From assembly GCF_964213995.1 (NCBI RefSeq), contig NW_027590182.1:558001-622000 (forward strand): a DNA stretch of 64,000 nucleotides, written 5' to 3'. The translations under genes and the position numbers were made by a program. Under the pieces are notes generated by a model. The model was not told where the DNA came from and made no database searches. It saw nothing but the letters and a program-made list of their open reading frames with translations. Below, piece after piece: positions 9,794-64,000 of the stretch. Source of the stretch: Mustelus asterias (Eukaryota). Positions within the stretch are counted from its first letter, which is position 1, and every line of letters starts with the position of its first letter.

Positions 9794-10165
9794 ACAGTAA
9801 GTAATCTCACAACACCAGGTTAAAATCCAACAGGTTAATTTGCTGGCATAAGCCACAGGATTTTGGAGCGCTGCTCTTCATCAGGTGAGTGGGAGTTCTA
9901 TTCACAAACAGGGCACAGAGACACAAACTCAATTTACAAAATAATGGTTGGAATGTGAGTCTTTACAGGTAATCAAGTCTTAAAGGTACAGACAATGTGA
10001 GTGGAGAGAGGGTGAAGCACAGGTTAAAGAGATGTGTATTGTCTCCAGCCAGGACAGTTAGTGAGATTTTGCAAGCCCAGGCAATTTGTGGGGGTTACAG
10101 ATAGTGTGAGTTACAGATAGTGTGACATGAACCCAAGATCCCGGTTGAGGCCATCCTCATGTGTG
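9794..10165 (-). mobile_element. Penelope-like element 3' fragment with decayed hammerhead
   Basis: Terminus acagtaagtaatctcacaacaccaggttaaa; homologous to 26093-26508 and 42880-43550; GAAA decayed to AAAA. Confidence 0.75.
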
Positions 10166-13156: not shown

Positions 13157-16100
13157 GTAACTCCTAGAAATGAGGCTTGGGTCAATGCCAGGAGGAGGGG
13201 TAAGAAGCAATCGGGAAGACAATCCCCTGGGGCGGTTCCCCTCCATAATAGGTTTTCGGTGCTGGAGGCTACAGTTGAGGAGGAATCAACTGAGCATAGA
13301 GAGCAGATCTCTGGGGGTGAGCCGAGTGAGAAAGCTCAGGTGGTTAGGGACTGTAAAAGACTGGGCCTTGTGATTGGGGACTCCGCAATTAAGGGGACAG
13401 ATAGGAGGGTCGGAACTAAAGGTAGGGACTCAGGGTTGGTGTGTTGCCTACCAGGGGCTGGGGTCCGGGATGTGTCTGACAGGGTATTCAGGACTCTTAG
13501 GGGGAGGGAGATAAACCACAAGTTATTGTACATGTGGGGACACACGACATAGGGAGGATAGGGGAAGGGGATATTAGGCAGGGATTTATGGAGTTGGGGT
13601 GGAAACTAAAGGCCAAGACTGACAGAGTGGTTATCTCTGGACTCTTGCCTGTACCACGGGATAGTTTAGAGAGGAATAAGGAGAGGGAAGGTTTGAATTC
13701 ATGGCTGAGGGGATGGTGCAGGAGGGAGGGGTTCAGGTACTTAAGCAATTGGGGCTCGTACTGGGGAAGGTGTGACCTCTATGAGAAGGATGGTCTACAC
13801 CTTAATCAGAAGGGGACCAATATCCTGGGGGGTAAATTTGCTAAGGCCATGCAGGGAGGTTTAAACTGATTCGGGGGGGGGAGGGATCCTGAGTAGTGGG
13901 GCTGAAAGTGAGGGATGCATGGATGGGGACTGCAATGCACGGCATTGCAGAGGTGGGGTGGAGCAGGGTTTGAAATGTGTATACTTCAATGCCAGGAGTA
14001 TTCGCAATAAAGTGGGTGAACTTGCAGCGTGGATCAGTACCTGGGACTTCGATGTTGTGGCTATTTCAGAGACATGGATAGAGCAGGGGCAGGAATGGAT
14101 GCTGCAGGTCCCGGGGTTCAAATGTTTTAGTCGAAGTAGGGAAGGAGGTAGAAGAGGGGGAGGGGTAGCATTATTGGTCAGAGATTGTATCACAGTGTCA
14201 GAGAGGAGGTTTGATGAGGACTTATCTGTTGAGGTAGTATGGGCGGAGATTAGAAATAGGAGAGGAGAGGTCACCCTGTTGGGAGTCTTTTATAGACCTC
14301 CTAAAAGTTCTAGAGAGGTTGAGGAAAGGATTGCGGAGTCAATCCTGCTTAGGAGTGAAAGTAATAGGGCAATTGTTATGGGGGATTTTAACTTGACTAA
14401 TATTGACTGGAATTGTTATAGCTCTAGCTCGTTAGAGGGGTCAGTTTTTGTTCAAAGCGTGCAGGAAGGTTTTTTGACTCAGTATGTAGACAGGCCAACT
14501 AGAGGTGAGGCTATATTGGATCTGGTGCTGGGAAATGAGCCAGACCAGGTGCTAGACTTGGAAGTTGGTGTGCATTTTGGTGATAGTGACCACAATTCGG
14601 TTACGTTCACCTTAGTGATGGAAAGGGATAGGCATGAACCTCGGGCCAGTGGTTTTAGCTGGGGGAAGGGTAATTATGAGGCTATTAGGAGAGAATTAGG
14701 AAACATAGGTTGGACTAGGAGATTACAGGGACTGGGAACGTCCGACATGTGGAGTTTTTTCAAGGAGCAGCTACTGCGAGTCTGTGATAGGTATGTCCCT
14801 GTCAGGCAAGGAGGAATTGGTAGGGCTAGGGAACCGTGGTGCACCAAAAAAGTTTCTTTGTTGGTTAAAAAGAAAAAGGAGGCTTATGTTCGGATGAGAC
14901 GTGAGCACTCGGGTAGTGCACTAGAAAGCTTTAGATTGGCTAAGAGGGAGTTGAAGAGCGAGCTTAGAAGGGCTAAAAGGGGACATGAGAAGACTTTGGC
15001 GGATAGGGTTAAAGAGAATCCTAAGGCGTTCTATAGGTATGTCAAGAACAGAAGGTTGGTTAGGGCAAGTTTAGGGCCAGTTATAGATGGCAGAGGGAAG
15101 TTATGTGTGGAACCGGAGGAGATTGGTGAAGCATTGAACCAATATTTCTCTTCGGTGTTCACGCAAGGGGACATGAATATAGCTGAGGAGGACACTGGGT
15201 TGCAGGGGAGTAGAATAGACAGTATTACAGTTGATAAGGAGGATGTGCAGGATATTCTGGAGGGTCTGAAAATAGATAAATCCCCTGGTCCGGATGGGAT
15301 TTATCCAAGGATTCTCTGGGAGGCAAGAGAAGTGATTGCAGAGCCTCTGGCTCTGATCTTCAGGTCGTCGTTGGCCTCTGGTATAGTACCAGAAGATTGG
15401 AGGTTAGCGAATGTTGTCCCATTGTTTAAGAAGGGGAACAGAGACTTCCCCGGGAATTATAGACCGGTGAGTCTCACTTCTGTTGTCGGCAAGATGTTGG
15501 AAAAAATTATAAGGGATAGGATTTATAGTTATTTGGAGAGTAATGAATTGATAGGTGATAGTCAGCATGGTTTTGTGGCAGGTAGGTCGTGCCTTACTAA
15601 CCTTATTGAGTTTTTTGAGAAAGTGACCAAGGAGGTGGATGGGGGCAAGGCAGTGGACGTGGTATATATGGATTTTAGTAAGGCGTTTGATAAGGTTCAC
15701 CATGGTAGGCTTCTGCAGAAAATGCAGATGTATGGGATTGGGGGTGATCTAGGAAATTGGATCAGGAATTGGCTAGCGGATAGGAAACAGAGGGTGGTGG
15801 TTGATAGTAAATATTCATCATGGAGTGCGGTTACAAGTGGTGTACCTCAGGGATCTGTTTTGGGGCCACTGCTGTTTGTAATATTTATTAATGATCTGGA
15901 TGAGGGTATAGTTGGGTGGATTAGCAAATTTGCTGATGACACCAAAGTCGGTGGTGTGGTAGACAGTGAGGAAGGGTGTCGTAGTTTGCAGGAAGACTTA
16001 GACAGGTTGCAAAGTTGGGCCGAGAGGTGGCGGATGGAGTTTAATGCGGAGAAGTGTGAGGTAATTCACTTTGGTAGGAATAACAGATGTGTTGAGTATA

Positions 16101-16847
16101 GGGCTAACGGGAGGACTTTGAATAGTGTGGAGGAGCAGAGGGATCTAGGTGTATGTGTGCATAGATCCCTGAAAGTTGGGAATCAAGTAGATAAGGTTGT
16201 TAAGAAGGCATATGGTGTCTTGGCGTTTATTGGTAGGGGGATTGAATTTAGGAGTCGTAGCGTTATGTTGCAACTGTACACAACTCTGGTGCGGCCGCAC
16301 TTGGAGTACTGTGTGCAGTTCTGGTCCCCACATTACAGGAAGGATGTGGAGGCTTTGGAGAGGGTGCAGAGGAGGTTTACCAGGATGTTGCCTGGTATGG
16401 AGGGGAGATCCTATGAGGAGAGGCTGAGGGATTTGGGATTGTTTTCGCTGGAAAGGCGGCGGCTAAGAGGGGATCTTATTGAAACATATAAGATGATTAG
16501 AGGTTTAGATAGGGTGGATAGTGATAGCCTTTTTCCTCTGATGGAGAAATCCAGCACGAGGGGGCATGGCTTTAAATTGAGGGGGGGTAGTTATAGAACC
16601 GATGTCAGGGGTAGGTTCTTTACCCAGAGGGTGGTGAGGGATTGGAATGCCCTGCCAGCATCAGTAGTAAATGCGCCTAGTTTGGGGGCGTTTAAGAGAT
16701 CCGTAGATAGGTTCATGGACGAAAAGAAATTGGTTTAGGTTGGAGGGTCACAGTTTTTTTTTTTTTTTTTTTACTGGTCGGTGCAACATCGTGGGCCGAA
16801 GGGCCTGTTCTGCGCTGTAATGTTCTATGTTCTATGTTCTATGTTCT
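13157..16847 (+). mobile_element. CR1 LINE #1, 5'-truncated, frameshifted ORF1 (SGNH esterase), intact ORF2
   Basis: IGDS esterase motif in ORF1 pieces; (ATGTTCT)n tail; empty paralogous site at 34038-34065. Confidence 0.95.
13919..16738 (+). CDS. CR1 ORF2: APE endonuclease plus reverse transcriptase
   Basis: YFNARSI, ISETW, MGDFN, SDHN (APE); [21 protein letters not shown] (RT). Confidence 0.95.
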   Translation: MDGDCNARHCRGGVEQGLKCVYFNARSIRNKVGELAAWISTWDFDVVAISETWIEQGQEWMLQVPGFKCFSRSREGGRRGGGVALLVRDCITVSERRFDEDLSVEVVWAEIRNRRGEVTLLGVFYRPPKSSREVEERIAESILLRSESNRAIVMGDFNLTNIDWNCYSSSSLEGSVFVQSVQEGFLTQYVDRPTRGEAILDLVLGNEPDQVLDLEVGVHFGDSDHNSVTFTLVMERDRHEPRASGFSWGKGNYEAIRRELGNIGWTRRLQGLGTSDMWSFFKEQLLRVCDRYVPVRQGGIGRAREPWCTKKVSLLVKKKKEAYVRMRREHSGSALESFRLAKRELKSELRRAKRGHEKTLADRVKENPKAFYRYVKNRRLVRASLGPVIDGRGKLCVEPEEIGEALNQYFSSVFTQGDMNIAEEDTGLQGSRIDSITVDKEDVQDILEGLKIDKSPGPDGIYPRILWEAREVIAEPLALIFRSSLASGIVPEDWRLANVVPLFKKGNRDFPGNYRPVSLTSVVGKMLEKIIRDRIYSYLESNELIGDSQHGFVAGRSCLTNLIEFFEKVTKEVDGGKAVDVVYMDFSKAFDKVHHGRLLQKMQMYGIGGDLGNWIRNWLADRKQRVVVDSKYSSWSAVTSGVPQGSVLGPLLFVIFINDLDEGIVGWISKFADDTKVGGVVDSEEGCRSLQEDLDRLQSWAERWRMEFNAEKCEVIHFGRNNRCVEYRANGRTLNSVEEQRDLGVCVHRSLKVGNQVDKVVKKAYGVLAFIGRGIEFRSRSVMLQLYTTLVRPHLEYCVQFWSPHYRKDVEALERVQRRFTRMLPGMEGRSYEERLRDLGLFSLERRRLRGDLIETYKMIRGLDRVDSDSLFPLMEKSSTRGHGFKLRGGSYRTDVRGRFFTQRVVRDWNALPASVVNAPSLGAFKRSVDRFMDEKKLV

Positions 16848-26092: not shown

Positions 26093-26508
26093 CAGTAAGA
26101 AGTCTCACAACACCAGGTTAAAGTCCAACAGGTTTATTTGGTAGCAAAAGCCACTAGCTTTCGGAGTGCTGCCCCTTCATCAGGTGACTGGGTGTTCAGT
26201 TCACAAACAGGGCATATAAAGACACAAACTCAATTTACAAAATAATGTTTGGAATGTGAGTCTTTACAGGTAATCAAGTCTTAAAGGTACAGACAAAGTG
26301 AGCAGAGAGAGGGTTAAGCACAGGTTGAAGAGATGTGTATTGTCTCCAGCCAGGACAGTTAGTGAGATTTTGCAAGCCCAGGCAAGTCGTGGGGTTACAG
26401 ACAGTGTGACATGAATCCAAGATCCCGGTTGAGGCCGTCCTCATGTGTGCGGAACTTGGCTATCAGTCTCTGCTTAGCGACTCTGCGCTGTCGTGTGTCG
26501 TGAAGGCC
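26093..26508 (-). mobile_element. Penelope-like element 3' fragment inserted at G4 mini-exon
   Basis: Encodes GIY-YIG-like C-terminus (LIAKFRTHEDGLNRDLGFMSH) plus PLE terminus. Confidence 0.8.
26151..26191 (-). ncRNA. Minimal type I hammerhead ribozyme (intact core)
   Basis: CAC-CUGAUGA-A-GGGG(CAGCA)CUCC-GAAA-GC-UA-GUG. Confidence 0.75.
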
Positions 26509-27477
26509 TCCATGCAGAATGCCAGCCTAACAGAAATATCACTATATTCCTCAACTAAAAATGTTTTAAATGGATTGTTTCAGTGAGTGAAGATACAGGG
26601 GGTTGTGACTGATGATGATATTGAACTTGCTGCCAACGTGGGTGATCATAGAGTTCTACAGCATGGAAAGAGGCCCTTCGGCCCATCATGTTTGTGCCGG
26701 CCATCAAGCACCATTCTATTCTCATCCCTTTCCACACTTGGTGCGTAACCTTGTATGCTATGGAATTTCAAGAGCTTATCTAAATTCTTCTTAAATGTTG
26801 TGAAGGTTCCCACCTCTACCACCCTTTCAGGCAGTGAGTTCCAGATTCCCACCACCCTCTGGGTGAAAACATTTTCCCTCACATCTCCTGTAAACCTCCT
26901 GCCCCTGAGCTTTAATCCAGGCCCCTGGTTATTGACCCCTCGACTGAAGAGAAAAGTTCCTTCCTATCCCCCTATCTTTGCCCCTCAGAATTTTATACAC
27001 CTCAATGAGGTCCCCTTCATCCTTCTCTGCTCCAAGAAAAACAATGCCAGCTTATCCAGTCTCTCTTGATAACTGAAACACTCCAGCCCAGCCAACACCC
27101 TGGGGAGGTTCCTCTGCACCCTCTCCAGTGCAATTACATCCTTCTTATAGTGTGGCGACCAGAACTGCACACAGTACTCCAGCTGTGGCCTCACAAGCAT
27201 TTTATACAGCTCCATCATAACCTCCCTGCTCTTATATTCAATGCCTCGGTAATAAAGGCAAGTATCCCATGTGCCTTCTGAACCACATTGTGTCCCTGTC
27301 CTGCTGTCTTCAGGGATCTATGACATGCACACCAAGGTCCCTCTGAACTTCTGTACTTCCTCGGATCTGACCATTTATTGTGCATTACCTTGTTAGTCTT
27401 CCCAAAATGCATTACCTCAAACTTTTCAGGTCTGAATTCATTTTGCCACTGTTCTGCCCATCGAATTAAAGTTTTAA

Positions 27478-27733: not shown

Positions 27734-28386
27734 CTCGTCGATATCAAACACAGGTCTCTGGTTGTGTGATGCAGCAGTGCTGCCCCGCCGATATCATCCT
27801 GTAATCTAAGGCTTTGCTCTTTGATATTTACCACATCACCAATTTTGTCCCATCTGTAAACCTACTGATCATACCTCCTACATTCACATCCAGATCATTA
27901 ACTTACACTAAAAACAAGGGACCCAGCGCTAATCGTGCGGAACACCACTGGACACAGACAGCTCATCAGAAAAACAGCATTCGACCATCCCCCTCTGACT
28001 CCTGCCACTTTTGGATCCAGTTTAGCAAATTACCCTGGATCCCATGGGACCTTCTTCATCAGCCTCCCATGCGGGACCTTGTCAAAAGCCTTACTGAAGT
28101 TCATGTAGACTACATCAACTGCACTCCCCTCATCTACACACCTCCTCGAAAAGTTCAACCAAATTTGTAAGACATGATCTTCCTTTGCCAAAATCATGCT
28201 GACTATCCTTGATTAATCCTTACTCCCCAAGTGGAAAGTAATCTCTCCCTCAGAATTTTTTGCAATACTTTCCCTATTGCTGAAGTTGGACTCACTGGCC
28301 TGTAGTTTGCTGTTTTTTCCCCGACTTCCCTTCTTGACTAATGGTACCATATCAGCTGTCCTCCATTCCCCTGGCACCTCTCCTGT

Positions 28387-28558
28387 TGTGGAGATGCCGG
28401 CATTGGACTGGGGTAAACACAGTAAGGAGTCTAACAACACCAGGTTAAAGTCAGAGATCTCCCACTCACCCGACGAAGGAGGAGCGCTCCGAAAGCTAGT
28501 GGCGTTTGCTACCAAATAAACCTGCAGGACTTTAACCTGGTGTTAGACTCCTTACTGT
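28387..28558 (+). mobile_element. 172-bp PLE mini-insert with inverted termini and hammerhead (U4 to C)
   Basis: 11-bp TSD ACCTCTCCTGT (28376-28386 and 28559-28569); CCGACGA-A-GGAG...CTCC-GAAAGCTA. Confidence 0.8.
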
Positions 28559-28748: not shown

Positions 28749-28840
28749 TGACTCACCTGATGAAGGTGCAGCGCTCCAAAAGCTCATGATTCCAAATAAA
28801 CCTGTTGGACTTTACCCTGGTGTTGTGAGACTTCTTACTG
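28749..28840 (+). mobile_element. PLE 3' terminus mini-insert with hammerhead (GAAA to AAAA)
   Basis: 11-bp TSD TGCTTTCTATA (28738-28748 and 28841-28851). Confidence 0.8.
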
Positions 28841-29808: not shown

Positions 29809-29895
29809 ACGAAGGAGCAGCGCTCCGAAAGCTTGTGTGGCTTTTGCTGCCAAATAAACCTGTTGGACTTTAACCTGGTGTTGTGAGACTTCTTA
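29809..29895 (+). mobile_element. PLE 3' terminus mini-insert truncated within the hammerhead core
   Basis: 8-bp TSD CTGACATT; empty paralogous site at 43910-43927 (reverse strand). Confidence 0.85.
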
Positions 29896-33366: not shown

Positions 33367-33722
33367 ATAACCAGCTGATATTCCGCGGCTGAGATATCCG
33401 AATCTGTAAAAAGGGGGTCTGATCAATCAACAAACGGTGGTAAGTAGATTAAGAAACGTTCTCAGGCATTGCTGAAATTATTTTATCATAGATTTGTGAT
33501 AAGTACTGTGAGGGACTTGTGACCGATAGTCGGTGAAGTGACGGTACACTCCAAGTAGCACTGGACTGAAAAGTGGACCTCTAAGAGTGGATTCTAATCG
33601 TTATAATCTTACCCAAGCATGGCCAGTGAAAAATTCAGAGCTCGAGTAGGGACCGGACAGATTTCTTACCTGTCTTTTGGAAACTAAGAACAAGAAACCT
33701 ATCGATAAAATGATTTGAGAAT

Positions 33723-33865
33723 AGAGCCAACATTTTTAGTCTGGATGACACTTCATAGGAGCTCTCATGAAGGGTCATCCAGACTTGAAACGTTGGCTCT
33801 ATTCTCTCCCTACAGATACTGTCAGATCTGCTGGGATTTTCCAGCATTTTCTGTTTTTGTTTTAC
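33723..33865. mobile_element. Family B short repeat, inverted pair
   Basis: ctcatgaagggtcatccagacttgaaacgttggc (hammerhead-like, core mutated). Confidence 0.65.
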
Positions 33866-41339: not shown

Positions 41340-42243
41340 CTTGTGAACTCACTGGTGTTTCACCAAGTTTGCTGACTGAGTGAATCACAGTCAGAGCAGG
41401 TGACCAGCCTCTGCCCAGTGTGAACTCACTGAAGTACCCATGGGTTGGATGACTTAGTGAATCCCTTCCCACACTGAGAGCAGCTCCCCAGTGTGAACTC
41501 GCTGGTGTTTCGGCAGTGCTGAAGATATTCTAAATCTCTTTGAGCAGTGAGAGCAGCTGAACGGCCTCTCCTCAGTGTGAATGCGCTGGTGGGACATCAG
41601 CTCTGAGAGCTTTTGAAGCCACTTCCACAGTCAGAGCATTTGAAAGGCCTCAGATTGGTGTGAGTGACTTTATGTCTGAGCAGGCTGGATGACTGAGTGA
41701 ATCCCTTCCCACACAAAGAGCAGGTAAATGGTCTCTCCCCAGTGTGAACTCGCTGGTGGGACACCAGTTCTCCAGAGCTTTTGAATCTGCTCCCACAGTC
41801 AGAGCATTTAAAGGATCTCTCATTGGTGTGAGTGAGATTATGACTCAGCAGGTGGGATAACTGAGTGAATCCCTTCCCACAGTCAGAACAGGTGAATGGT
41901 CACTCCCCAGTGTGAACTCGCTGGTGTCTCTGCAGATTGGATGAGCTTTTAAACCTCTTTCTGCAGTGAGAGCATCTGAACGGTCTCTCCTCAGTGTGAC
42001 ACCTGGTGGGACACTGGTTCTCCAGAGGTTTTGAAGCCAATGCTACAGTCAGAGCATTTAAACGTTCCCTCATTGGTGTGAGTGAGATTGTGTTTCTGCA
42101 GGCTGGATAACTGAGTGAATCCCTTCCCGCACACAGAGCAGGTGAATGGCCGCTCCCCAGTGTGACTGCATCGATGAGATTCCAGCTGTGATGGGACCCT
42201 GAATCGCCTCCCACAGTCCCCACATTTCCACGGTTTCCCCCTG
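41340..42243 (-). pseudogene. C2H2 ZNF pseudogene G6
   Basis: Start codon changed to AGG (RGKPWKC), frameshifts at about 42000, 41600 and 41483; exon-1 donor reads GA instead of GT at about 44178. Confidence 0.85.
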
Positions 42244-42927
42244 GTGCGGGTGTTCTTGTGACTCTCCAGGTTCAACAATCAGTTAAATCTCACACAGAAC
42301 ACGGGTACAGTCTCTCCCCGCTGTGAACGCTGCGGTGTATTTTCAGGCTGTGTAACTGGTTGAATCTCTTCCCACACAGTACACTGGAACACACTCACTC
42401 GGGTGTATCTGTGTCTCAGTGATTTTTCAGTTACATTTATGTTTAAAAAAATTCTGAAGCAGACAGAACAGAAAAAGATTTCTCCTTTTAGATTCAAAGG
42501 CCAATGATATTCAGGTCCTGATCAAATGAATAAATCTGTCAGGTCTTGATGTGTTGTTTGATTTGAGATTTCTGCCTGTAAATCCTCACCTTCTGCAAAT
42601 CTATCGTGCAAAAGGAGTTTATAAGATTCATCAGTGTCAGTACAGGATAGAAATTCAGAACAGACAATTCTAGTTTCTATGGAACATTCTTTCCTCTCTC
42701 ATTCCCCAAAAGCTGTAAATCTCCATCCCACACACTCTCCCTCCATTCTCACTCTGCTGTATCTAATATTCACCCTACCAATTCTTCAAAAGGTGCTGAT
42801 TCAGGCTGATTGACAGATCTATGCTCACTGCTTCCTGTCCTGGGTGTGGAGATGTCGGCGTTGGACTGGGGTAGACACAGTAAGAAGTTTCACAACACCA
42901 GGTTAAAGTCCAACAGCTTTATTAGTA

Positions 42928-42965
42928 GCAGGAGCTTTCGGAGCACTGCTCCTTCATCAGCTGTG
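42928..42965 (-). ncRNA. Minimal hammerhead ribozyme (intact core, variant stem I)
   Basis: CAG-CUGAUGA-A-GGAGC(AGU)GCUCC-GAAA-GC-UC-CUG. Confidence 0.75.
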
Positions 42966-43249
42966 TGCAGGATTTGGTTCGCAAACAGGGCACATATAGA
43001 CACAAACTCCATTATAAGATAATGGTTGGAATGCGAGTCTTAACAGGTAATCAAGTCTTTCCAGGTACAATGTGAGTGGAGAGAGGGTTAAGCACAGGTT
43101 AAAGAGGTGTGAATTGTCTCAATGTTGTCTCAATTGTCTCACGTTGTTTCTATCTTAAAGACTTGATTAGCTGTAAGTATTCGCATTCCAACCATTATTC
43201 ATGTAAATTGAGTCTGTGTCTTTATCTGCCCTGTTTGTGAACAGAATTC

Positions 43250-43295
43250 CCACTCACCTGAAGAAGGGGCTTGGAGCTCCGAAAGCTTGTGTGGC
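43250..43295 (+). ncRNA. Minimal hammerhead ribozyme (intact core)
   Basis: CAC-CUGAAGA-A-GGGGCU(UGG)AGCUCC-GAAA-GC-UU-GUG. Confidence 0.75.
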
Positions 43296-44169
43296 TTTTG
43301 CGACCAAATAAACCTGTTGGACTTTAACCTGGTGTTGTTAAACTTCTTACTGAATTGTCTCAAGCCAGGACAGTTAGTGAGATTTTGCAAGCCCAGCAAG
43401 TTGTGGGGGTTACAGATAGTGTGACATGAACCCAAGATCCTGGTTGAGACCGTCCTCGTGTGTGCGGAACTTGGCTATCAGTTTCTGCTCAGCGATTCTG
43501 CGCTGTCGTGAGTCTTGAAGGCCGCCTTGGAGAACACTTACCCGAAGATCAAGGGCATTCAGCCTCTGATCTTCGGGTAAGTGTTCGCCAAGGCGGTTTA
43601 TAGTTTAGTTTTGATTGTTTATTAATTAGTGTCACAAGGAGGCTTACATTAACACTGCAATTAAGTCACTTGAAAATCATGAAAAAAGTGCAAACAATCT
43701 ATGAAGTTACTGTGAGAGTCAGCATGGACTCGAGTTGTCCAATGGACTCCTTCTGTGCTGTAATGACTCTATAACTGGAAATATATAATGTAGCTACAGT
43801 ACAATATGACAAGATTGGAATGATAAATGCATTTATTGCAGGACCAGGAATAAACCTGGCTGATATAACAACACTGGACATATGTCTGTCCTATATTAAT
43901 TTACTGTCCCCTTAAATGTCAGCCATCCCCTGGGGAAACCAGCCCTTCAATTGTGAACATTAGGAAAGAGACCATCCTTTTAGCCAGACAAATAAATGTG
44001 TCAAGCTGAGGGAGCAAAGGATGTCAATGTCTTTAAGAGAGAGGGAGACCTGGGCCAACCTTTCTAGAGTCTGCAGCCTCCCTGGATTCACTTCCTTCCT
44101 TCAGTTGCTGCAAGTCCCCAATTTCCCCCAGAATGAGAAAAGAAATGGAAAGGGGGAGAAAAGAAAGTG

Positions 44170-44625
44170 TTTTACTCTCAGATGTTGGAGACAGGAGGAA
44201 GTTTCAGTCTGTCTGAAGCGCAATCTTCATTCACGCAAAGCCGGCGCTCTGATGAGCTGGAGAACCAGAGTCCTTTCGGTCCTCCAACTCTTCCTATTCG
44301 TGAACACCTCAGAAGGGCAGGGGATGGACTCTCCCCTGGACATGCGCCTCTCCCTTGGACAGCCGCCGTCCTTGGCCGGGGGGAGGGGGAGATCACTGAG
44401 CGGCTTCTCGCTCTGGCCGGAGCTGTCAGCCGGTTGCCTGGAAACCTTGGCTCGATATGGTGTAGGCGGAGGGGGAACAATGGGTGGGGGCGGGGCTCCC
44501 GGGTCCGCGCGCCCGGGCCTGCTCACTGGAAACTGGAGAGGTCACCGCGGAGCAGAGTGATTCCTATTGGCTAATTCAAGGATGGCTCCACTGTGATGTC
44601 ACAAAGGGGAAGTTGGCCAATGATG
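44170..44625 (-). promoter_or_regulatory. CpG-island promoter and exon 1 of G6
   Basis: Homologous to the 29100-29550 island and 61350-61470; GC box, CCAAT, CRE-like site. Confidence 0.7.
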
Positions 44626-44757
44626 ATGTAATTTAAACAATGCCTGAGATCACTTCACTTCTTGGTCATAGAACATAGAACATAGAACATAGAAAGCCAC
44701 AGCACAAACAGGCCCTTCGGCCCACAAGTTGCGCCGATCATATCCCTACCTCTAGGC

Positions 44758-47670
44758 CTATCTATAGCCCTCAATCCCATTAAATCCCATGTACTCATCC
44801 AGAAGTCTCTTAAAAGACCCCAACGAGTTTGCCTCCACCACCACCAACGTCAGCCGATTCCACTCACCCACCACCCTCTGAGTGAAAAACTTACCCCTGA
44901 CATCTCCTCTGTACCTACACCCCTGCACCTTAAACCTGTGTCCTCTCGTAGCAACCATTTCAGCCCTTGGAAATAGCCTCTGAGAGTCTACCCTATCCAG
45001 ACCTCTCAACATCTTGTAAACCTCTATCAGGTCACCTCTCATCCTTCGTCTCTCCAGGGAGAAGAGACCAAGCTCCCTCAACCTATCCTCATAAGGCATG
45101 CTCCCCAATCCAGGCAACATCCTTGTAAATCTCCTCTGCACCCTTTCAATGGCTTCAACATCTTTCCTGTAATGAGGTGACCAGAACTGTGCGCAGTACT
45201 CCAAGTGGGGTCTAACCAGGGTCCTATAAAGCTGCAGCATTATCTCCCGACTCCTAAACTCAATCCCTCGATTAATGAAGGCTAGTACGCCGTACGCCTT
45301 CTTGACCGCATCCTCCACCTGCGAGGCCGATTTAAGAGTCCTATGGACCCGGACCCCAAGGTCCTTCTGATCCTCTACACTGCTAAGAATGGTACCCTTC
45401 ATATTATACTGCTGCTTCATCCCATTGGATCTGCCAAAATGGATCACCACACACTTATCCAGGTTGAAGTCCATCTGCCACTTCTCCGCCCAGTCTTGCA
45501 TTCTATCTATGTCTCGCTGCAACTTCTGACATCCCTCCAAACTATCCACAACACCACCTACCTTGGTGTCGTCAGCAAACTTACCAACCCATCCCTCCAC
45601 TTCCTCATCCAGGTCATTTATGAAAATGACAAACAGCAAGGGTCCCAGAACAGATCCCTGGGGCACTCCACTGGTCACTGACCTCCATGCAGAGAAAGAC
45701 CCCTCCACAGCCACTCTCTGCCTTCTGCAGGCAAGCCAGTTCTGGATCCACAAGGCAACAGCCCCTTGGATCCCATGCCCTCTCACTTTCTCAAGAAGTC
45801 TTGCATGGGGGACCTTATCGAACGCCTTGCTGAAGTCCATATAGACCACATCCACCGCTCTTCCTTCGTCAATGTGTTTGGTCACATTTTCAAAGAACTC
45901 AACCAGGCTCGTAAGGCATGACCTGCCCTTGACAAAGCCGTGCTGACTACTTTTGATCATACTAAACTTCTCTAGATGATCATAAATCCTGTCTCTCAGG
46001 ATCCTCTCCATCAACTTACCAACCACTGAGGTTAGACTCACCGGTCGGTAATTTCCCGGGCTGTCCCTGTTCCCTTTCTTGAATATAGGGACCACATCTG
46101 CAATCCTCCAATCCTCCGGAACCTCTCCCGTCTCCATCGACGATGCAAAGATCATCGCCAAAGGCTCCGCAATCTCCTCCCTCGCCTCCCACAGTAACCT
46201 GGGGTACATCCCATCCGGTCCCGGCGACTTACCAACCTTGATGCCATTCAATAGTTCCAACACATCCTCTTTCTTTATGTCCACATGCTCGATTCTTTCT
46301 GTCCACCGCAAACCAGCAGTACAACCACCCAGATCCCTTTCCACCGTGAATACCGAGGTAAAGTATTCATTAAGCACCTCCGCCATTTCTAACGGTTCCG
46401 CACAAACTTTTCCCCCTTCACCTTTTAAGGGTCCTATGCCTTCACATCTCATCCTTTTACTCTTGACATATTTGTAGAAAGCCTTGGGATTCTCCTTAAT
46501 CTTACCCGCCAAGGTCTTCTCATGACCCCTTCTCGCTCTCCTAATTTCCTTCTTAAGTTCCTTCCTACATCCCGTATACTCCTCTAAATCCTTAACACCT
46601 CCTAGCTCTCTGAACCTTCTGTACGCCTCTCTTTTCTTATTCACCAGGTTCATCACAACCTTCGTGCACCACGGTTCCCGTACCCTACCAACACCCCCCT
46701 GTCTCATCGGAACGTTGTCATGCAGAGCTCCAGACAAACATTCCTTGAAAATCCTCCACTTTCCTTCGGTACTTTTCCCCAAGAATGCCTCCTTCCAATT
46801 TACCCGTCTAATTTCCTCCCTGATGACACTGTATTTCCCTTTACTCCAGAGAAACACTTTCCTAGCCTGCCTGATCCTATCTCTTTCCAATGCTATCGTG
46901 AAGGAGATAGAATTATGATCGCTATCCCCAAGATGCTCACCCACCGAGAGATCCTCCACCTGTCCAGGTTCATTAGCCAGCACCAGATCAAGTACAGCCT
47001 CTCCTCTAGTAGGCTTATCCACATACTGTGTCAGGAAACTCTCCTGGACACACCTAACAAACTCCTCTCCATCCAAACCCCTAGCCCTAGGGATATTCCA
47101 ATCTATGTTTGGGAAATTAAAATCTCCCATCACGACAACTCTGTTATTCCTACATCTCTCCAGGATCTGTTTCCCCATCTGCTCCTCAACATCTCTGTTA
47201 CTATTGGGCGGCCTATAGAAAACACCCAGCAAAGTTACCGACCCCTTCCTGTTCCTAACCTCCACCCACAGAGACTCCGTAGTCAATCCCTCCACGGCGT
47301 CCACCTTCTCTACAGCCGCGACACTATCCCTGATCAACAGTGCCACTCCCCCCCCTCTCTTGCCTCCCTCCCTGTCCTTCCTGAAACATCTAAAACCCGG
47401 CACCTGAAGCACCCAGTCCTGTCCCTGAGACATCCAAGTCTCCGTAATGGCCACCACATCACAATTCGAAGCAGCAATCCACGCTCCAAGCTCATCCACT
47501 TTATTCACTACACTCCTGGCATTAAAATAGACACATCTCAGACCTTCAGCCTGAGCATTTCCCTTCTCCATCACTCGTCTAACCTCCCTCTTACCCTGTC
47601 TACATTCCTTATCTATTTGCGAGCTAACCTCCTCGCTCTCAGTCCCCTCATTTCGATTCCCTCCCCCCAA
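44758..47670 (-). CDS. CR1 ORF2 (APE plus RT), open from the slippery site at 47685
   Basis: 970 aa uninterrupted with all APE and RT motifs. Confidence 0.95.
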   Translation of the reverse strand: MGGGNRNEGTESEEVSSQIDKECRQGKREVRRVMEKGNAQAEGLRCVYFNARSVVNKVDELGAWIAASNCDVVAITETWMSQGQDWVLQVPGFRCFRKDREGGKRGGGVALLIRDSVAAVEKVDAVEGLTTESLWVEVRNRKGSVTLLGVFYRPPNSNRDVEEQMGKQILERCRNNRVVVMGDFNFPNIDWNIPRARGLDGEEFVRCVQESFLTQYVDKPTRGEAVLDLVLANEPGQVEDLSVGEHLGDSDHNSISFTIALERDRIRQARKVFLWSKGKYSVIREEIRRVNWKEAFLGKSTEGKWRIFKECLSGALHDNVPMRQGGVGRVREPWCTKVVMNLVNKKREAYRRFRELGGVKDLEEYTGCRKELKKEIRRARRGHEKTLAGKIKENPKAFYKYVKSKRMRCEGIGPLKGEGGKVCAEPLEMAEVLNEYFTSVFTVERDLGGCTAGLRWTERIEHVDIKKEDVLELLNGIKVGKSPGPDGMYPRLLWEAREEIAEPLAMIFASSMETGEVPEDWRIADVVPIFKKGNRDSPGNYRPVSLTSVVGKLMERILRDRIYDHLEKFSMIKSSQHGFVKGRSCLTSLVEFFENVTKHIDEGRAVDVVYMDFSKAFDKVPHARLLEKVRGHGIQGAVALWIQNWLACRRQRVAVEGSFSAWRSVTSGVPQGSVLGPLLFVIFINDLDEEVEGWVGKFADDTKVGGVVDSLEGCQKLQRDIDRMQDWAEKWQMDFNLDKCVVIHFGRSNGMKQQYNMKGTILSSVEDQKDLGVRVHRTLKSASQVEDAVKKAYGVLAFINRGIEFRSREIMLQLYRTLVRPHLEYCAQFWSPHYRKDVEAIERVQRRFTRMLPGLGSMPYEDRLRELGLFSLERRRMRGDLIEVYKMLRGLDRVDSQRLFPRAEMVATRGHRFKVQGCRYRGDVRGKFFTQRVVGEWNRLTLVVVEANSLGSFKRLLDEYMGFNGIEGYR

Positions 47671-48611
47671 CCTTTCTCGTTTAAAGTCTCTCCAGTAGCC
47701 TTAGCCAACCTTCCCGCCAGGATATTGGTCCCCCTGGGATTCAAGTGCCACCCGTCTTTTTTAAACAGGTCACACCTGCCCCTAAAGAGGTCCCAATGAT
47801 CCAAGTACCCAAATCCTTGTCCCTTGCTCCAGTCCCTCAGCCACGCATTCATTCTCCACCGATTCCTGTTCTCACTCTCCCGCGGCACAGGCAGCAATCC
47901 CGAGATTACTACCTTTGCATTCCTCTTTCTCAGCTGTCTACCTAACTCCCTACATTCTCTTTTCATGACCCCTTCCCTCTTCCTACCTATGTCAGCAGTA
48001 CCTATATGCATCACGACCTTCGGCTCCTCTCCCTCCCCCTTCAGGATTTCTGGGACTCGACCAGAGACATCCCGGACCCCTGCACCAGGGAGGCAAACCA
48101 CCATCCGAGAGTCCCGTCTGTGTCCGCAAAAACGCCTATCTGACCCCCTCACCGTAGAGTCCCCAATTAGCACTACCCTCCTTTCCTTACCCTTTTGCAC
48201 TACTGGGCCAGGCTCAGCTCCAGAGACACTGCCACTGCTGCTTCCCCCAGGTGGGCTGTCCTCCCCAGTAGTACTCAGACAGGAGTACTTATTATTAAGG
48301 GGCACATCCACCGGGGTGCTCACCATCAACCGAGCTTTCTCCTTCCTCACTGTTACCCAGTTACCCTCCTCCCGTGGTCCCGGTGTGACCACCTGCCGAT
48401 AGCTCCTGTCAATGACCTCCTCACTATCCCTAACCCGGCGAAGGTCCTCGAGCTGCAATTCAAGTTCCCTAACATGGTCCCTTAGGAACCGCAGCTCAAC
48501 ACACCCAGCACAGATATGGTCGTCCGGGAGGCTAGGAGCCTCCAGGACCTCCCACATCCTACATTGGGAACAACATACTGGCCTCACACTCATAATTGCC
48601 CTTTTAAACAC
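47613..48611 (-). CDS. CR1 ORF1: Cys-rich zinc finger / leucine zipper plus SGNH esterase
   Basis: CSQC...CAGC, LRDHVRELELQLEDL, IGDS, CLPGAG, DGWHLN; first ATG is 6 codons in. Confidence 0.9.
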   Translation of the reverse strand: MFKRAIMSVRPVCCSQCRMWEVLEAPSLPDDHICAGCVELRFLRDHVRELELQLEDLRRVRDSEEVIDRSYRQVVTPGPREEGNWVTVRKEKARLMVSTPVDVPLNNKYSCLSTTGEDSPPGGSSSGSVSGAEPGPVVQKGKERRVVLIGDSTVRGSDRRFCGHRRDSRMVVCLPGAGVRDVSGRVPEILKGEGEEPKVVMHIGTADIGRKREGVMKRECRELGRQLRKRNAKVVISGLLPVPRESENRNRWRMNAWLRDWSKGQGFGYLDHWDLFRGRCDLFKKDGWHLNPRGTNILAGRLAKATGETLNEKGWGEGIEMRGLRARRLARK

Positions 48612-52029: not shown

Positions 52030-52200
52030 AAGGCAAAATATTGCGGATGCTGGAAAAAACAAAAACAGAAAATGCTGGAAAATGTCAGCAGGTCTGACAG
52101 CATCTGTGGAGAGAGAGTAGAGCCAACATTTAAAGTCTGGATGACCCTTGTTCTGACAAAGGGTCATCCAGACTCAAAATGTTAGTCTATTCTCTCTCTG
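52030..52200. mobile_element. Family B short repeat, inverted pair
   Basis: gtctggatgaccctt-gttctgaca-aagggtcatccagac; hammerhead core decayed (CTGACAA, AAAA). Confidence 0.65.
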
Positions 52201-52375
52201 TAAATATACATACGACAGCTGCCTCAGGCTTGGCCCACTCTAACTCCCTGCAAAAGGAGATTACAAGAGTCATGTGTCAATTGTGGCTTGAAATTAAGAA
52301 ATACACATTTTTTGGGGGGTTTGAGATTGCTGTAAAAATCCTCTTCTTCTAACCATCTGTAAAAGGAGATTCCAA

Positions 52376-56390: not shown

Positions 56391-59300
56391 GCTTTGGCTC
56401 ACAGGGCTTCGGCGAAGGCGAGGAAGGTTGTTTGTTTTTCTTCTGTTACACCCCCTTTTTTGTTTTATCTCCCAAAAACTAAAAAGGACATGGCTGGTAT
56501 GAGTGGGAGGCCAGTATACTGCATTCGGTGTGGGATGTGGGAGTTCCTGGAGACAACTTGCCTCCCGGAAGTCCATATCTGTGCCAGATGCGTGGAACTG
56601 CAACTCCTGAAGGATCGTGTAAGGGAGCTGGAGCTGAGGCTCGATGAACTCAGTTTAGTTAGGGCAAATGAGAGATTAATAGATAAAGGTTATAGTCAGG
56701 TAGTGACACCAGGGTCTCGGAAGGAAGACACGTGGGTCACAGTTAGGAGGGGTAATAGTCAGAAGGGTGATGTGCCAGAAAGTACCCCAGTGGCAGTCTC
56801 CCGTAAAAGAAAGGGATGGCAACAGATGGGAGAAGGGAAGGGAGTGAGCAGTCTGTGGAGGGATCCCCTGTGGTTGTCCCCCTCCAAAATAGGTATATTG
56901 TTTTGGATTCTGTGGAGGGGGATGACCCTCCAGGGGTAAGCCACGAGGACCAGATCGCCTCCACGGAGACAGGCTCAAGGGTCCGGAAGGGAAAGAAGCG
57001 ATTTAGGAGAGCGATAGTTGTGGGGGACGCAATGGTTAGAGGCACGGACAGGCGGTTCTGTGGGAGTGAACGAGAATCCAGGATGGTAGTCTGCCTCCCT
57101 GGAGCCGGGGTACTGGATGTCTCCGAGAGGGTAGGAAGCATATTTAAAAAGGAAGGTAGTCAAACGGATGTGATTATACACATTGGTGAAAATGATGTCG
57201 GTAGGAAGAGCAGGGGGGTCATACGAGAGAAATTCAGGGAGTTGGGTGCTAGGCTAAAAAGTAAGGCCTCCAGGGTAGCAATCTCTGGACTGCTCCCGGT
57301 GTCTAGTGCAAGTGAGGCTCGGAACAGGGAGATTCTACAGTTGAACGCGTGGCTAAAGGACTGGTGCAAGAGGGAGGGTTTTTAATTCATAGATAACTGG
57401 GAAATCTTCAAGTCAGGATGGCAACTGTACAGAAAGGATGGGTTACACCTTAACTGGAAGGGAGCAAATATCCTGGCTGGGAGTTTTGCGAGAGTGTTTC
57501 GGCAGGATTTAAACTAGTGTGGCAGCGGGGTGGGGAACAAAACAGTAGGTCAGTAAATACTGAGGCTGGGGTTGAGCTGGGGGCCAGGGCAAGGCTAGCT
57601 AAGAAGAGGAGCACTCTGGAGGAGGATGACCTGAGTGGGCCTGGAGGTCTGGAGTGCATCTGCTTCAATGCAAGGAGCGTAACGGGTAAAACAGACGAAC
57701 TTAGGGCCTTAATGCTTATGCGGAATTTGGATGTGGTTGCGGTGACGGAAACTTGGTTAAAAGAAGGACAGGACTGGCAGCTGAATATTCCAGGGTATAA
57801 GTGTTTTAGGCGAGACAGAGGAGGGGCTAAAAAAGGTGGGGGAGTAGCGATATTAGTTAAGGAGCATGTTACCGCGGTGCAGAGGGTAGACAACTTGGAG
57901 GGGTCATGTACTGAGTCGCTGTGGGTGGAACTCAGAAACAGGAAGAGTGCAGTCACTATGCTGGGGGTGTACTACAGACCACCTCTCGGCCCACGGGAAG
58001 TGGAGGAAAGGATATGTCAGGAGATTCTGGATAGGTGCAGAAAAAATAGGGTTGTTGTAGTGGGGGACTTTAATTTCCCTGGCACAGACTGGAAAGTGCT
58101 TAGAGCTGGGGGTCCGGATGGGGAGGAATTTGTAAAATGCGTACTGGAAGGTTCTTTGGAACAGTATGTAGATAGCCCGACTAGAGAGGGGGCTATACTG
58201 GACCTAGTTCTGGGAAATGAGCCCGGTCAGGTCGTCAAAGTTTCGGTAGGGGAACATGTGGCAAATAGTGACCACAACTCTGTTAACTTTAGGATAGTAA
58301 TGGACAAGGATGAGTGCTGTCCTACGGGCAGGGTGCTAAATTGGGGGAAGGCTGACTACAGCCGGATTAGGCAGGAATTGGTGGATGTTGATTGGGAGAG
58401 GATGTTCGAGGGTAAGTCCGCGTCTGGCATGTGGGAGTCTTTTAAGGAACTATTGATAAGACTGCAGGATAGGCATGTGCCTGTAAAAAGGAAAGATAGG
58501 AAAGGTAGGATTCGAGAGCCGTGGATAACCAGGGAAATTGAGGATCTGATTAAAATGAAAAGGGAGGCGTACGTTAAGTCGAGGCAACAGAAAACAGATG
58601 GAGCTCTGGAGGAATACAGAGAGAGTAGGAAAGAACTCAAACGGGGAGTTAGAAGGGCAAAAAGAGGTCACGAGATGTTCTTGGCAGGCAGGATTAAGGA
58701 GAATCCTAAGGCATTCTATTCATACGTTAGGAACAAAAGAGTTGTCAGGGAGAAAATCGGACCTCTCAGGGACAAAGGAGGGGAATTATGCTTAGGACCC
58801 AAGGGAATAGGGGAGATCCTAAATGAATACTTTGCATCGGTATTCACGAAGGAAAGGGGCGTGTTAACCGGGACTGTCTCGGAGGGAGGTGTTGACCCGT
58901 TAGAGAAAATCTCCATTACAAGAGAGGAAGTGTTAGGTTTTTTAGGGAACATTAAAACTGACAAAGCCCCATGGCCTGATGGCATCTATCCTCGACTGCT
59001 CAGGGAGACGAGAGATGAAATTGCTGGGCCTCTGACGGAAATCTTTGTCGCTTCTTTGGACACGGGTGAGGTCCCTGAGGATTGGAGGATAGCGAATGTG
59101 GTCCCGTTGTTTAAGAAGGGTAGAAGGGATAACCCAGGAAATTATAGGCCGGTGAGCTTGACGTCCGTGCTAGGGAAGTTGTTGGAGAGGATTCTTAGAG
59201 ACAGGATGTATGTGGATTTAGAACGGAACAATCTCATTAGTGACAGACAGCATGGTTTTGTAAGAGGGAGGTCGTGCCTTACAAATTTGGTGGAATTTTT

Positions 59301-60575
59301 TGAGGAAGTGACAAAAACGGTTGATGAAGGAAGGGCCGTGGATGTCGTCTATATGGATTTCAGGAAGGCATTTGACAAAGTCCCACATGGCAGGTTGGTT
59401 AAGAAGGTTAAGGCTCATGGGATACAAGGAGAAGTGGCTAGATGGGTGGAGAACTGGCTTGGCCATAGGACAGTAAGAAGTTTAACAACACCAGGTTAAA
59501 GTCCAACAGGTTTATTTTCATAGGCCATAGGAGACAGAGGGTAGTGGTCGAAGGGTCTTTTTCCGGCTGGAGGTCTGTGACCAGTGGTGTTCCACAAGGC
59601 TCTGTACTGGGACCTCTGCTATTTGTGATATATATAAATGATTTGGAAGAAGGTGTAACTGGTGTAATCAGCAAGTTTGCGGATGACACGAAGATGGCTG
59701 GACTTGCGGATAGCGAAGAGCATTGTCGGGCAATACAGCAGGATATAGATAGGCTGGAAAATTGGGCGGAGAGGTGGCAGATGGAGTTTAATCCGGATAC
59801 ATGCGAAGTGATGCATTTTGGAAGAAATAATGTAGGGAGGAGTTATACAATAAATGGCAGAGTCATCAGGAGTATAGAAACACAGAGGGACCTAGGTGTG
59901 CAAGTCCACAAATCCTTGAAGGTGGCAACACAGGTGGAGAAGGTGGTGAAGAAGGCATATGGTATGCTTGCCTTTATAGGACGAGGTATAGAGTATAAAA
60001 GCTGGAGTCTGATGATGCAGCTGTATAGAACGCTGGTTAGGCCACATTTGGAGTACTGCGTCCAGTTCTGGTTGCCGCACTACCAGAAGGACGTGGAGGC
60101 GTTAGAGAGAGTGCAGAGAAGGTTTACCAGGATATTGCCTGGTATGGAGGGTCTTAGCTATGAGGAGAGATTGGGTAAACTGGGGTTGTTCTCCCTTGAA
60201 AGACGTAGAATGAGGGGAGATCTAATAGAGGTGTACAAGATTATGAAGGGGATAGATAGGGTGAACGGTGGGAAGCTTTTTCCCAGATCAGAAGTGACGT
60301 TCACGAGGGGTCACGGGCTCAAGGTGAGAGGGGCGAAGTATAACTCAGATATTAGTGGGATGTTTTTTACACAGAGGGTGGTGGGGGCCTGGAATGCTCT
60401 GCCAAGTAGGGTGGTGGAGGCAGGCACGCTGACATCGTTTAAGACTTACCTGGATAGTCACAGGAGCAGCCTGGGAATGGAGGGATACAAACGATTGGTC
60501 TTGTTGGACCAAGGAGCGGCACAGGCTTGGAGGGCCGAAGGGCCTGTTTCCTGTGCTGTACTGTTCTTTGTTCTT
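56391..60575 (+). mobile_element. CR1 LINE #3, near full length; ORF1 has a frameshift and a nonsense codon, ORF2 broken by a 52-bp PLE insert
   Basis: 7-bp TSD TGTGAGG; ORF1 CIRC...CARC plus VGDA esterase; ORF2 at 57517-59470 and 59533 onward. Confidence 0.95.
59471..59522 (-). mobile_element. 52-bp PLE 3' terminus insert
   Basis: 10-bp TSD GGCCATAGGA (59461-59470 and 59523-59532). Confidence 0.9.
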
Positions 60576-61943: not shown

Positions 61944-62817
61944 ATAGTTTGGAGGGATGTCAGAAGTTGCAGCGAGACATAGATAGAATGCAAGACTGGG
62001 CGGAGAAGTGGCAGATGGACTTCAACCCGGATAAGTGTGTAGTGATCCATTTTGGCAGATCCAATGGGATGGAGCAGCAGTATAAAATGAAGGGTACCAT
62101 TCTTAGCAGTGTAGAGGATCAGAAGGACCTTGGGGTCCGGGTCCATAGGACTCTTAAATCGGCCTCGCAGGTGGAGGATGCGGTCAAGAAGGCGTATGGC
62201 GTACTAGCCTTCATTAATCGAGGGATTGAGTTTAGGAGTCGGGAGATAATGCTGCAGCTTTATAGGACCCTGGTTAGACCCCACTTGGAGTACTGCGCGC
62301 AGTTCTGGTCACCTCATTACAGGAAAGATGTTGAAGCCATTGAAAGGGTGCAGAGGAGATTTACAAGGATGTTGCCTGGATTGGGGGGCATGCCTTATGA
62401 GGATAGGTTGAGGGAGCTTGGTCTCTTCTCCCTGGAGAGACGAAGGATGAGAGGTGACCTGATAGAGGTTTACAAGATGTTGAGGGGTCTGGATAGGGTG
62501 GACTCTCAGAGGCTATTTCCAAGGGCTGAAATGGTTGCTACGAGAGGACACAGGTTTAAGGTGCTGGGGGGTAGGTACAGGGGGGATGTCAGGGGTAAGT
62601 TTTTCACTCAGAGGGTGGTGGGTGAGTGGAATCGGCTGACGTCGGTGGTGGTGGAGGCAAACTCGTTGGGGTCTTTTAAGAGACTTCTGGATGAGTACAT
62701 GGGATTTAATGGGATTGAGGGCTATAGATAGGCCTAGAGGTGGGGATGTGATCGGCGCAACTTGTGGGCCGAAGGGCCTGTTTGTGCTGTGGCTTTCTAT
62801 GTTCTTTCTATGTTCTA
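61944..62817 (+). mobile_element. 5'-truncated CR1, close relative of CR1 #2
   Basis: Protein nearly identical to the C-terminal 260 aa of 44758-47670. Confidence 0.95.
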
Positions 62818-62923
62818 ATACAGTGTATTACACACACCATCAGTCTGCTCATTTATATCCAAATGTAAAACTGTAACATGACTGTCAGCTTGAAGATTTT
62901 CAGCTCTCTGTGTCCAGAACAGG

Positions 62924-64000
62924 AAGAAGTCTCACAACACCAGATTAAAGTCCAACAGGTTTATTTGGTGGCACAAAGCCATCGTCACAATGCCACATTT
63001 GGTAGAACAGGAAACTTGAGAAACTCGGCATCACCACCAGCAGCAATCAAGCCTCCCCCGGTACCACAGTAGAAAACAGTACCACTGCAGGGAAGTCCAT
63101 TGTCAACTTGTCGGACACACTTCAACCAGATGAAATCAAAGTTCTCAATTTCTGCCCCACCACCAAAATAGACCCCAGCAGTCTCGCAGCAGACACAGAG
63201 GAATTCATCAGGCGAATGAGGCTGCGGGAGTTCTTCCACAAACCCCAAGAGGCCAACAGCGAACATAATGAGATAGTCAATGAACTGGAACAGCCGATAG
63301 AGAGATCCACGGTACAGCAACCAAAGAGGAAAGAGTCGAATTGGACTCCTCCGGAAGGCCGCTGCCCTCGACTTGACATGTATGCCCAAGCCGTCAGGAG
63401 GTGCGTCAATGCCAGATTCATCAGTCGCACTCACAAGACAGCCCCGAACATCACCCAAGCACAACGCAACGCCATCTGCGCTCTCAAGATCAAGCGCACC
63501 ATTGTCATCAAACCAGCAGACAAAGGAGGGGCAATCATCATGCTGAACAGAACGAATTACTGCAAAGTGTCCTGACAACTGAACAATGAGGAAAACTACA
63601 GACAGTTACCTGCAGATCCGACCAAAGAACACACCCGTCAACTCAACAGACAGATCAAGACATTTGATCCGGACCTTCAGAGCACCCTCCGTGCTCTCAT
63701 CCCACGTACTCCCCGCGTTGGAGATCTCTACTACCTCCCGAAGATACACAAGGCAAACACACCTGGCCGTCCCATCGTATCGGGCAATGGGACCCTGTGT
63801 GAGAAACTCTCCGGCTACGTCGAGGGCATCCTGAAACCCATTGTACAAAGAACCCCAGCTTCTGTCGTGACACTACGGACTTCCTTCAGAAACAGCACAC
63901 ATGGAGCAGTTGAACCAGTAGCACTCCTCATCACAATGGATGTCTCGGCACTCTACACCAGCATCCCCCACGACGATGGCATTGGTGCAACTGCCTCAGT
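62924..64000 (+). mobile_element. Penelope-like retroelement (frameshifted ORF) with an inverted 3'-terminus copy at its 5' junction
   Basis: VNLS, KPADKGG, LPKIHK, GRPIVS and TMDVSALYTSIP motifs typical of PLE reverse transcriptase. Confidence 0.9.

Follow-up and report, generated by a model that had tools for sequence, protein, structure and literature searches.

The 64-kb window analysed here, which is the whole stretch of DNA under study, carries around positions 42928 to 43295 two short sequences that resemble hammerhead ribozymes, and it raises the question of what these motifs are, what larger element they belong to, and whether they have any function where they now lie. We consider it highly probable (about 0.88) that they represent a minimal type I hammerhead located in the terminal repeat of a Penelope-like element (PLE) that bears an endonuclease, and that the copies in the window are truncated and likely passive carriers. 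The original prediction had proposed the same PLE identity and had pointed to the palindromic AGCU that replaces helix III and to the extra A that follows A9. Both features stand, as does the precedent that it cited for this additional A in the hammerhead of CChMVd, where A10 is confirmed (PMC3705267).

All seven related copies reported in the window are present where they had been placed, and the three that were said to retain an intact core (26152-26186, 42929-42963 and 43255-43291) do so. A structural descriptor (CUGANGA, an extra base where present, a stem II of 4 bp or more, GAAA..UH, and a stem I of 3 bp or more) matched the 64-kb window three times, exactly at these intact-core copies, and produced one match overall on 200 dinucleotide shuffles (mean 0.005 per shuffle). 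C3 of the complete motifs lies at 26183 (-), 42960 (-) and 43258 (+). The variation described across the copies was likewise borne out, with U, A or C at N7 and A, U or C at H17. The motif at 42929-42963, on the minus strand, belongs to a short-tail subfamily and has N7=U, H17=C and a CAG/CUG stem I, with the predicted cut 3' of C17 at 42932. That at 43255-43291, on the plus strand, is also an intact minimal type I hammerhead, in this case of a young subfamily (N7=A, H17=U); it has matches elsewhere at 97-100% identity, a predicted cut 3' of U17 at 43288, and an AAUAAA at 43307. The third intact core, at 26152-26186 on the minus strand (N7=U, H17=A), sits in a 3' fragment at about 26093-26519 and shows a C-A mismatch at the fifth pair of stem II. 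Three further copies are decayed: 9855-9890 (minus strand, in a 3' fragment) has GAAA changed to AAAA and GCU to UCC, 28461-28502 (plus strand) is a short copy with U4 changed to C and an inverted partner at 28377-28452, and 28752-28790 (plus strand), also a short copy, has G12 changed to A and a mismatch in stem I. The remaining copy, at 29809-29840 (plus strand), is an element copy truncated from its 5' side inside the core. Nowhere in the window do two intact motifs lie close together on the same strand. The comparison with hammerhead covariance models that had been suggested as a check did not recover the motif, since an Rfam cmscan of the window at E<=5 returned 11 weak hits, none of them to a hammerhead family.

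The two motifs at 42928 and 43250 lie on opposite strands, a point on which the original prediction was silent, and they therefore cannot provide helix III for each other in cis. The older of their two carriers (42845-43600, minus strand) is a 5'-truncated PLE 3' fragment comprising the ORF C-terminus, the 3' UTR, the hammerhead, a poly(A) signal at 42923 and a tail. Its C-terminal remnant (about 43410-43560) ends ...QKLIAKFRTHEDGLNQDLGFMSHYL*, with the stop at about 43410, and matches the C-terminus of the intact ORF of the full-length copy L112 described below. A younger copy from the same element family, likewise truncated at its 5' end (43138-43352, plus strand), is inserted in reverse in the 3' UTR of the older one and is flanked by a 13-bp target duplication (43110-43122 and 43351-43363). 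The arms of this nested pair share only 72% identity, and a transcript across both motifs is predicted to fold into a single long hairpin (-260 kcal/mol). The surrounding unit (41500-44400), in which a broken ZNF exon lies at about 41600-42250 (-), has undergone at least 13 segmental duplications, and these show 92-100% identity. At the end of the window, a long copy of the parent element, with its ORF frameshifted, contributes its 5' part (62919-64000, plus strand), in which an inverted 3' stub is followed by ORF pieces; this copy runs past the window to about L031:3630 and has its own hammerhead.

The full element has a pLTR-ORF-pLTR layout with a period of about 3.0 kb. The motif is located in its pseudo-LTR (pLTR), that is, in both the 5' leader, about 126-130 nt upstream of the start codon, and the 3' UTR, about 210-240 nt past the stop and just 5' of AAUAAA. 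A search with the ORF start returned 30 loci, 14 of which were extended, and the motif flanks the ORF on both sides in 6 of these 14 long loci. One natural full-length copy, L112 (1569-4244, G000:C21), has an open ORF of 892 aa with motifs at -129 and +2891, and, to judge by this open copy, the family has been active recently. The 892-aa protein, encoded as a single ORF, contains a reverse transcriptase domain (RVT_1, E=1.9e-9, Pfam). Its C-terminal part is similar to GIY-YIG clusters in which 13-23% of the members carry PF01541 (Atlas score 0.96), and a VVY..YIGET motif as well as a C-x4-C-x2-C linker can be read in its sequence. A Pfam scan of the full 892-aa protein did not detect GIY-YIG, and we treat the endonuclease as a lead backed by the visible motif; Pfam on the broken ORF pieces and a PDB sequence search gave no match. 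Taken by itself, the linker motif suggests Neptune or Nematis as the clade. Neptune-clade PLEs (Craig et al. 2021, PMC8557442) share with this family a single ORF in which the reverse transcriptase is followed by GIY-YIG, pLTRs, a Zn-finger-like CX2-5CxxC linker (also found in Nematis), and the habit of inserting with an inverted 5'-truncated partner and an optional 30-40 bp tail. Among the shark copies, pLTRs, inverted truncated partners and the 30-40 bp tail are all present. Measured from the first base of AAUAAA, their 3' ends fall into two classes about 35 nt apart, at 43-52 nt (85 of 161 copies) and 77-89 nt (47 of 161), which matches the published PLE tail; 12 of the 161 copies reach into the ORF, and no strong target consensus was seen beyond 81 3' ends. 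The PAc Poseidon element of Anolis (Frangieh et al. 2024, PMC11167929) also has a hammerhead at the pLTR-ORF junction and two 3'-end classes that define the tail, but its motif overlaps the start codon, whereas here the motif lies about 126 nt upstream, and 5' of the poly(A) signal. Some endonuclease-bearing PLEs have a spliceosomal intron in the pLTR, and candidate intron signals are found around the ribozyme here, with GUAAGU upstream of it and a branch-like site and an AG before the ATG. The candidate splice donor differs among subfamilies (GUAAGU, GUAAAG, GUAGAG), and no GT..AG splice joint across the ribozyme was found in contigs from the 4 runs, out of 22 listed, that were guessed to be RNA.

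The conservation of the motif was examined among copies. From 101 distinct copies with both flanks, six were dropped (duplicates and copies picked for CAG/CUG) and 88 of the remaining 95 could be parsed. Each core position is kept in 82-88 of these 88 copies, the extra A after A9 is found in 86 of 88 and the G10.1-C11.1 pair of helix II in 80 of 87, and the palindromic AGCU at 15.1-16.1, with helix III absent, is seen in nearly all. N7, H17 and loop II differ by subfamily, with H17 never being G (0 of 88). The core is also intact in at least 37 of 53 copies from loci that had been fetched without the core pattern or the 43150-copy query. Pair 10.3/11.3 is A-U in 43 copies, G-U in 38 and G-C in 6, and so remains paired in 87 of 87; pair 2.1/1.1 is C-G in 60, U-A in 18, U-G in 5, C-A in 3, G-C in 1 and G-G in 1. 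The covariation among genome copies to which the original prediction had looked is thus present, by subfamily, as C-G/U-G/U-A at 2.1/1.1. Alignment A1 leaves out 15 near-identical, duplicate or CAG-picked rows and holds 86 of the 101 copies (78 of them distinct). In it, pairing reaches 97% in stems I and II and 80% in a distal stem I, which has a further A-U to U-A change. The covariation score of this alignment was reached by none of 500 shuffles and every slid control scored lower; its four doubly changed pairs are a number that 432 of the 500 shuffles reach. Read from the aligned copies, the subfamily covariation (C-G to U-A in stem I) appears real but modest, because it reflects only two or three independent subfamily events. 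With so few events, and a sample picked in part by the core pattern, both the Fisher P (2e-11) and the shuffle test overstate it. The flanks outside the ribozyme are also well conserved (mean column identity of 81%).

The CAG/CUG stem I at 42928, in place of the more usual CAC/GUG, had been taken as a compensatory change. The two strands do pair on paper; that selection produced the pairing is not supported by the genome-wide counts. In identical pattern frames, CAC/GUG occurs 37,344 times, CAG/GUG 422 times, CAC/CUG 315 times and CAG/CUG 20 times, such that 737 mismatched single changes stand against 20 double ones. The possibility that CAG/CUG is a subfamily trait was considered and ruled out; 13 of the 20 copies are duplicates of one locus, sharing the host flanks and the nested insert of the 42928 locus at 92-100% identity. 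Independent cases number 8, against 3.6 expected from independent mutation (Poisson P=0.03), and mixed copy ages would push this expectation above 3.6. On these counts, the pair at 42928 is likely due to chance and not to selected covariation; the slight excess is unexplained, and, being mild, leaves room for a small CAG/CUG effect. Two mutations probably arose in one copy after its insertion, and segmental duplication of the ZNF unit then increased their number. A more general caution follows, in that at such a copy number one "compensatory" pair arises by chance.

How far the ZNF setting matters can be judged from the abundance of the family. A pattern combining the core with the poly(A) flank gave 100,134 exact matches in the 3.68-Gb genome (a control pattern gave 0), or about 27 core-bearing copies per Mb, and a pattern of the two flanks alone gave 44,365. 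With 100,134 copies across the genome, the motif is not a feature of ZNF clusters, and since its density in the window does not stand out from the figure of about 27 per Mb, its occurrence beside ZNF genes is incidental; the link to a ZNF cluster drawn in the original prediction does not hold. It might still be argued that the ZNF genes have co-opted the copies, as active self-cleaving elements, for transcript processing, with the one at 42928 kept functional by compensation. That motif is sense to the ZNF exon about 700 nt downstream, the locus occurs in at least 13 duplicates that retain the motif, element 3' ends occupy one spot at 3 of 8 paralogous sites, and double changes are in twofold excess. 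We find this extremely improbable, however, since the ZNF exon contains an in-frame stop as well as a change of frame, the core is altered in some of the duplicates (L006, L018), the locus transcript is predicted to be tied up in the long hairpin with the antisense nested copy, and four of the seven window copies are broken. The host flanks of the duplicates are, moreover, themselves 92-100% identical, so that retention of the motif is expected anyway. Another proposal, which we regard as very unlikely, is that the short copies form a separate non-autonomous family, retrozyme or SINE-like, that spreads via circular RNA. Short copies do far outnumber long ones (at least 390 ORF-start candidates versus 100,134 motifs), and retrozymes, which derive from pLTRs, have been reported in one chondrichthyan (bioRxiv 2026.07.22.740005). 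The non-LTR retrozymes share with the shark family type I hammerheads, a relation to pLTRs and large numbers of copies, reaching 120,000 in axolotl (PMC7229834; bioRxiv 2026.07.22.740005), but they are tandem monomers of fixed length with mostly canonical hammerheads, whereas the copies described here derive from an autonomous element as ragged 3' fragments. Their shared 3' end and tail, ragged 5' ends and often inverted partner amount to the published PLE insertion unit (PMC8557442), and the window contains no head-to-tail array of fixed-length monomers, its copies being dispersed, ragged or inverted.

For a minimal hammerhead in the PLE terminal repeat, the remaining issue is activity. Because the motif has no helix III of its own, cleavage would need a dimer or a protein: it would take place after H17 only when two motifs pair via the AGCU palindrome, or in the presence of the element's protein, as published work on other PLEs suggests. 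In ViennaRNA predictions, stem I has a pairing probability of at most 0.05 in monomer folds, and the lowest-energy dimers differ from the active AGCU dimer. We envisage that the ribozyme is kept in the source elements, where it would likely process pLTR-to-pLTR transcripts, and that the copies in the window are passengers. Selection likely acts on the RNA of source elements and inserted copies would then decay, which would account for subfamily changes that keep pairing alongside decaying inserted copies. It is possible, if rather unlikely, that source elements retain the motif as a pLTR structure or protein-binding element and that cleavage in vivo is rare or absent. The hammerhead of the anole Poseidon element is dispensable for insertion in vitro, was active in cleavage only when protein was present, and is not marked by RNA-seq reads with ends at its cut site (PMC11167929); published activity of minimal hammerheads, which depends on dimers, is low (PMC4209133); and host-joined 5' ends in the shark have no peak at the cut site, albeit in small samples. 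Against this, the catalytic positions are common to all the subfamilies seen, G is absent from H17 throughout the 88 copies, and N7 varies freely, which is the pattern expected of catalysis. A lack of cleavage would concern activity alone and is compatible with the identification as a PLE hammerhead.

A possible trace of cleavage was sought in the 5' ends of copies, counted at offsets -2 to +1 from the predicted cut with a twofold criterion set beforehand. Copies starting at offsets -2, -1, 0 and +1 number 48, 84, 307 and 688; with expected ratios of 0.19:0.20:0.39:0.86, offset 0 stands raw at 1.9x offset -1 and 3.1x offset -2, close to the twofold mark within offsets -2 to +1. Fold-backs centred on a self-complementary AT make up 16 of the 30 offset-0 loci inspected. 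Host-joined loci account for 2/15, 7/15, 6/30 and 6/15 at the four offsets (about 34, 196, 157 and 320 when scaled) and, in these small samples and over these offsets, form no peak there. Cleaved templates could have given rise to the fold-backs, but so could the palindrome by itself. The combined reading, in which the ribozyme cuts the element RNA in vivo and tiny fold-back insertions with both arms starting right after the cut are its fossil record, seems unlikely to us; if true, end-mapping of more than 100,000 copies would settle PLE hammerhead cleavage during retrotransposition. Many tiny perfect fold-backs whose axis is the first two bases past the predicted cut were seen among L160-L184 (e.g. 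G000:C2:48893114-48893171). A common, unexplained sequence of about 18 nt lies 5' of the element in three independent loci (L163, L180 and L181).

This class of motif, together with where it lies and what marks it, has been in the literature since 2014, and the shark family is a further example. Every sequence feature listed by the original prediction is already in Cervera and De la Pena 2014, and the extra base, the helix sizes and the opposite-strand pairs are described there as well (PMC4209133), which leaves no novelty to the motif as such. The minimal hammerheads of metazoan PLE pLTRs (PMC4209133) have in common with those of the shark the type I topology without helix III, the palindromic 15.2-16.2 region, the extra base between 9 and 10.1, the G10.1-C11.1 pair, a short helix I, several subfamilies with covariation, and a location in both pLTRs of full elements; they too occur mostly solo or as opposite-strand pairs 100-700 bp apart. 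Such motifs are known from the Xena, Poseidon and Neptune elements of fish (PMC4209133). Stem II is 5-6 bp in the shark, as compared with 7-8 bp in the Schistosoma families, and the copy number exceeds 100,000, as compared with about 4,000 in coelacanth and 9,000 in Xenopus tropicalis (PMC4209133), roughly tenfold the frog or coelacanth counts, although the search methods differ. The abstract, results and discussion of PMC4209133 name no shark, and a literature search whose scope lay outside the supplements of that paper and of the preprint, Repbase and Dfam found no paper on shark PLE hammerheads among those listed; the two sets of supplements may include shark motifs. This vertebrate family represents a resource: it was recently active, includes a copy whose ORF is intact, falls into several subfamilies and numbers over 100,000 motifs. 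These properties make it a good system in which to ask if PLE hammerheads cut in vivo.

Other repeats were observed in the window. A LINE 3' end is present as two inverted copies that are 98% identical (44684-45545 and 61944-62805), and long LINE ORFs occupy 13865-16735 (+), 44761-47700 (-) and 57454-59496 (+). A second family of short inverted repeats with related arms lies at 33716-33850 and 52106-52211 and has weak Rfam hits only. At 3 of 8 paralogous sites 5' of ZNF exons, the 3' end of a Penelope-like copy lies near one host position (26082, 42835 (-) and L031:3632); these ends are within a few bases of that position and come from at least two subfamilies. At a fourth paralogous site (10192) the element fragment is about 30 nt off, and an empty paralogue (1409) shows a short TG repeat at this place. 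It is possible that this recurrence reflects an insertion hotspot or gene conversion.
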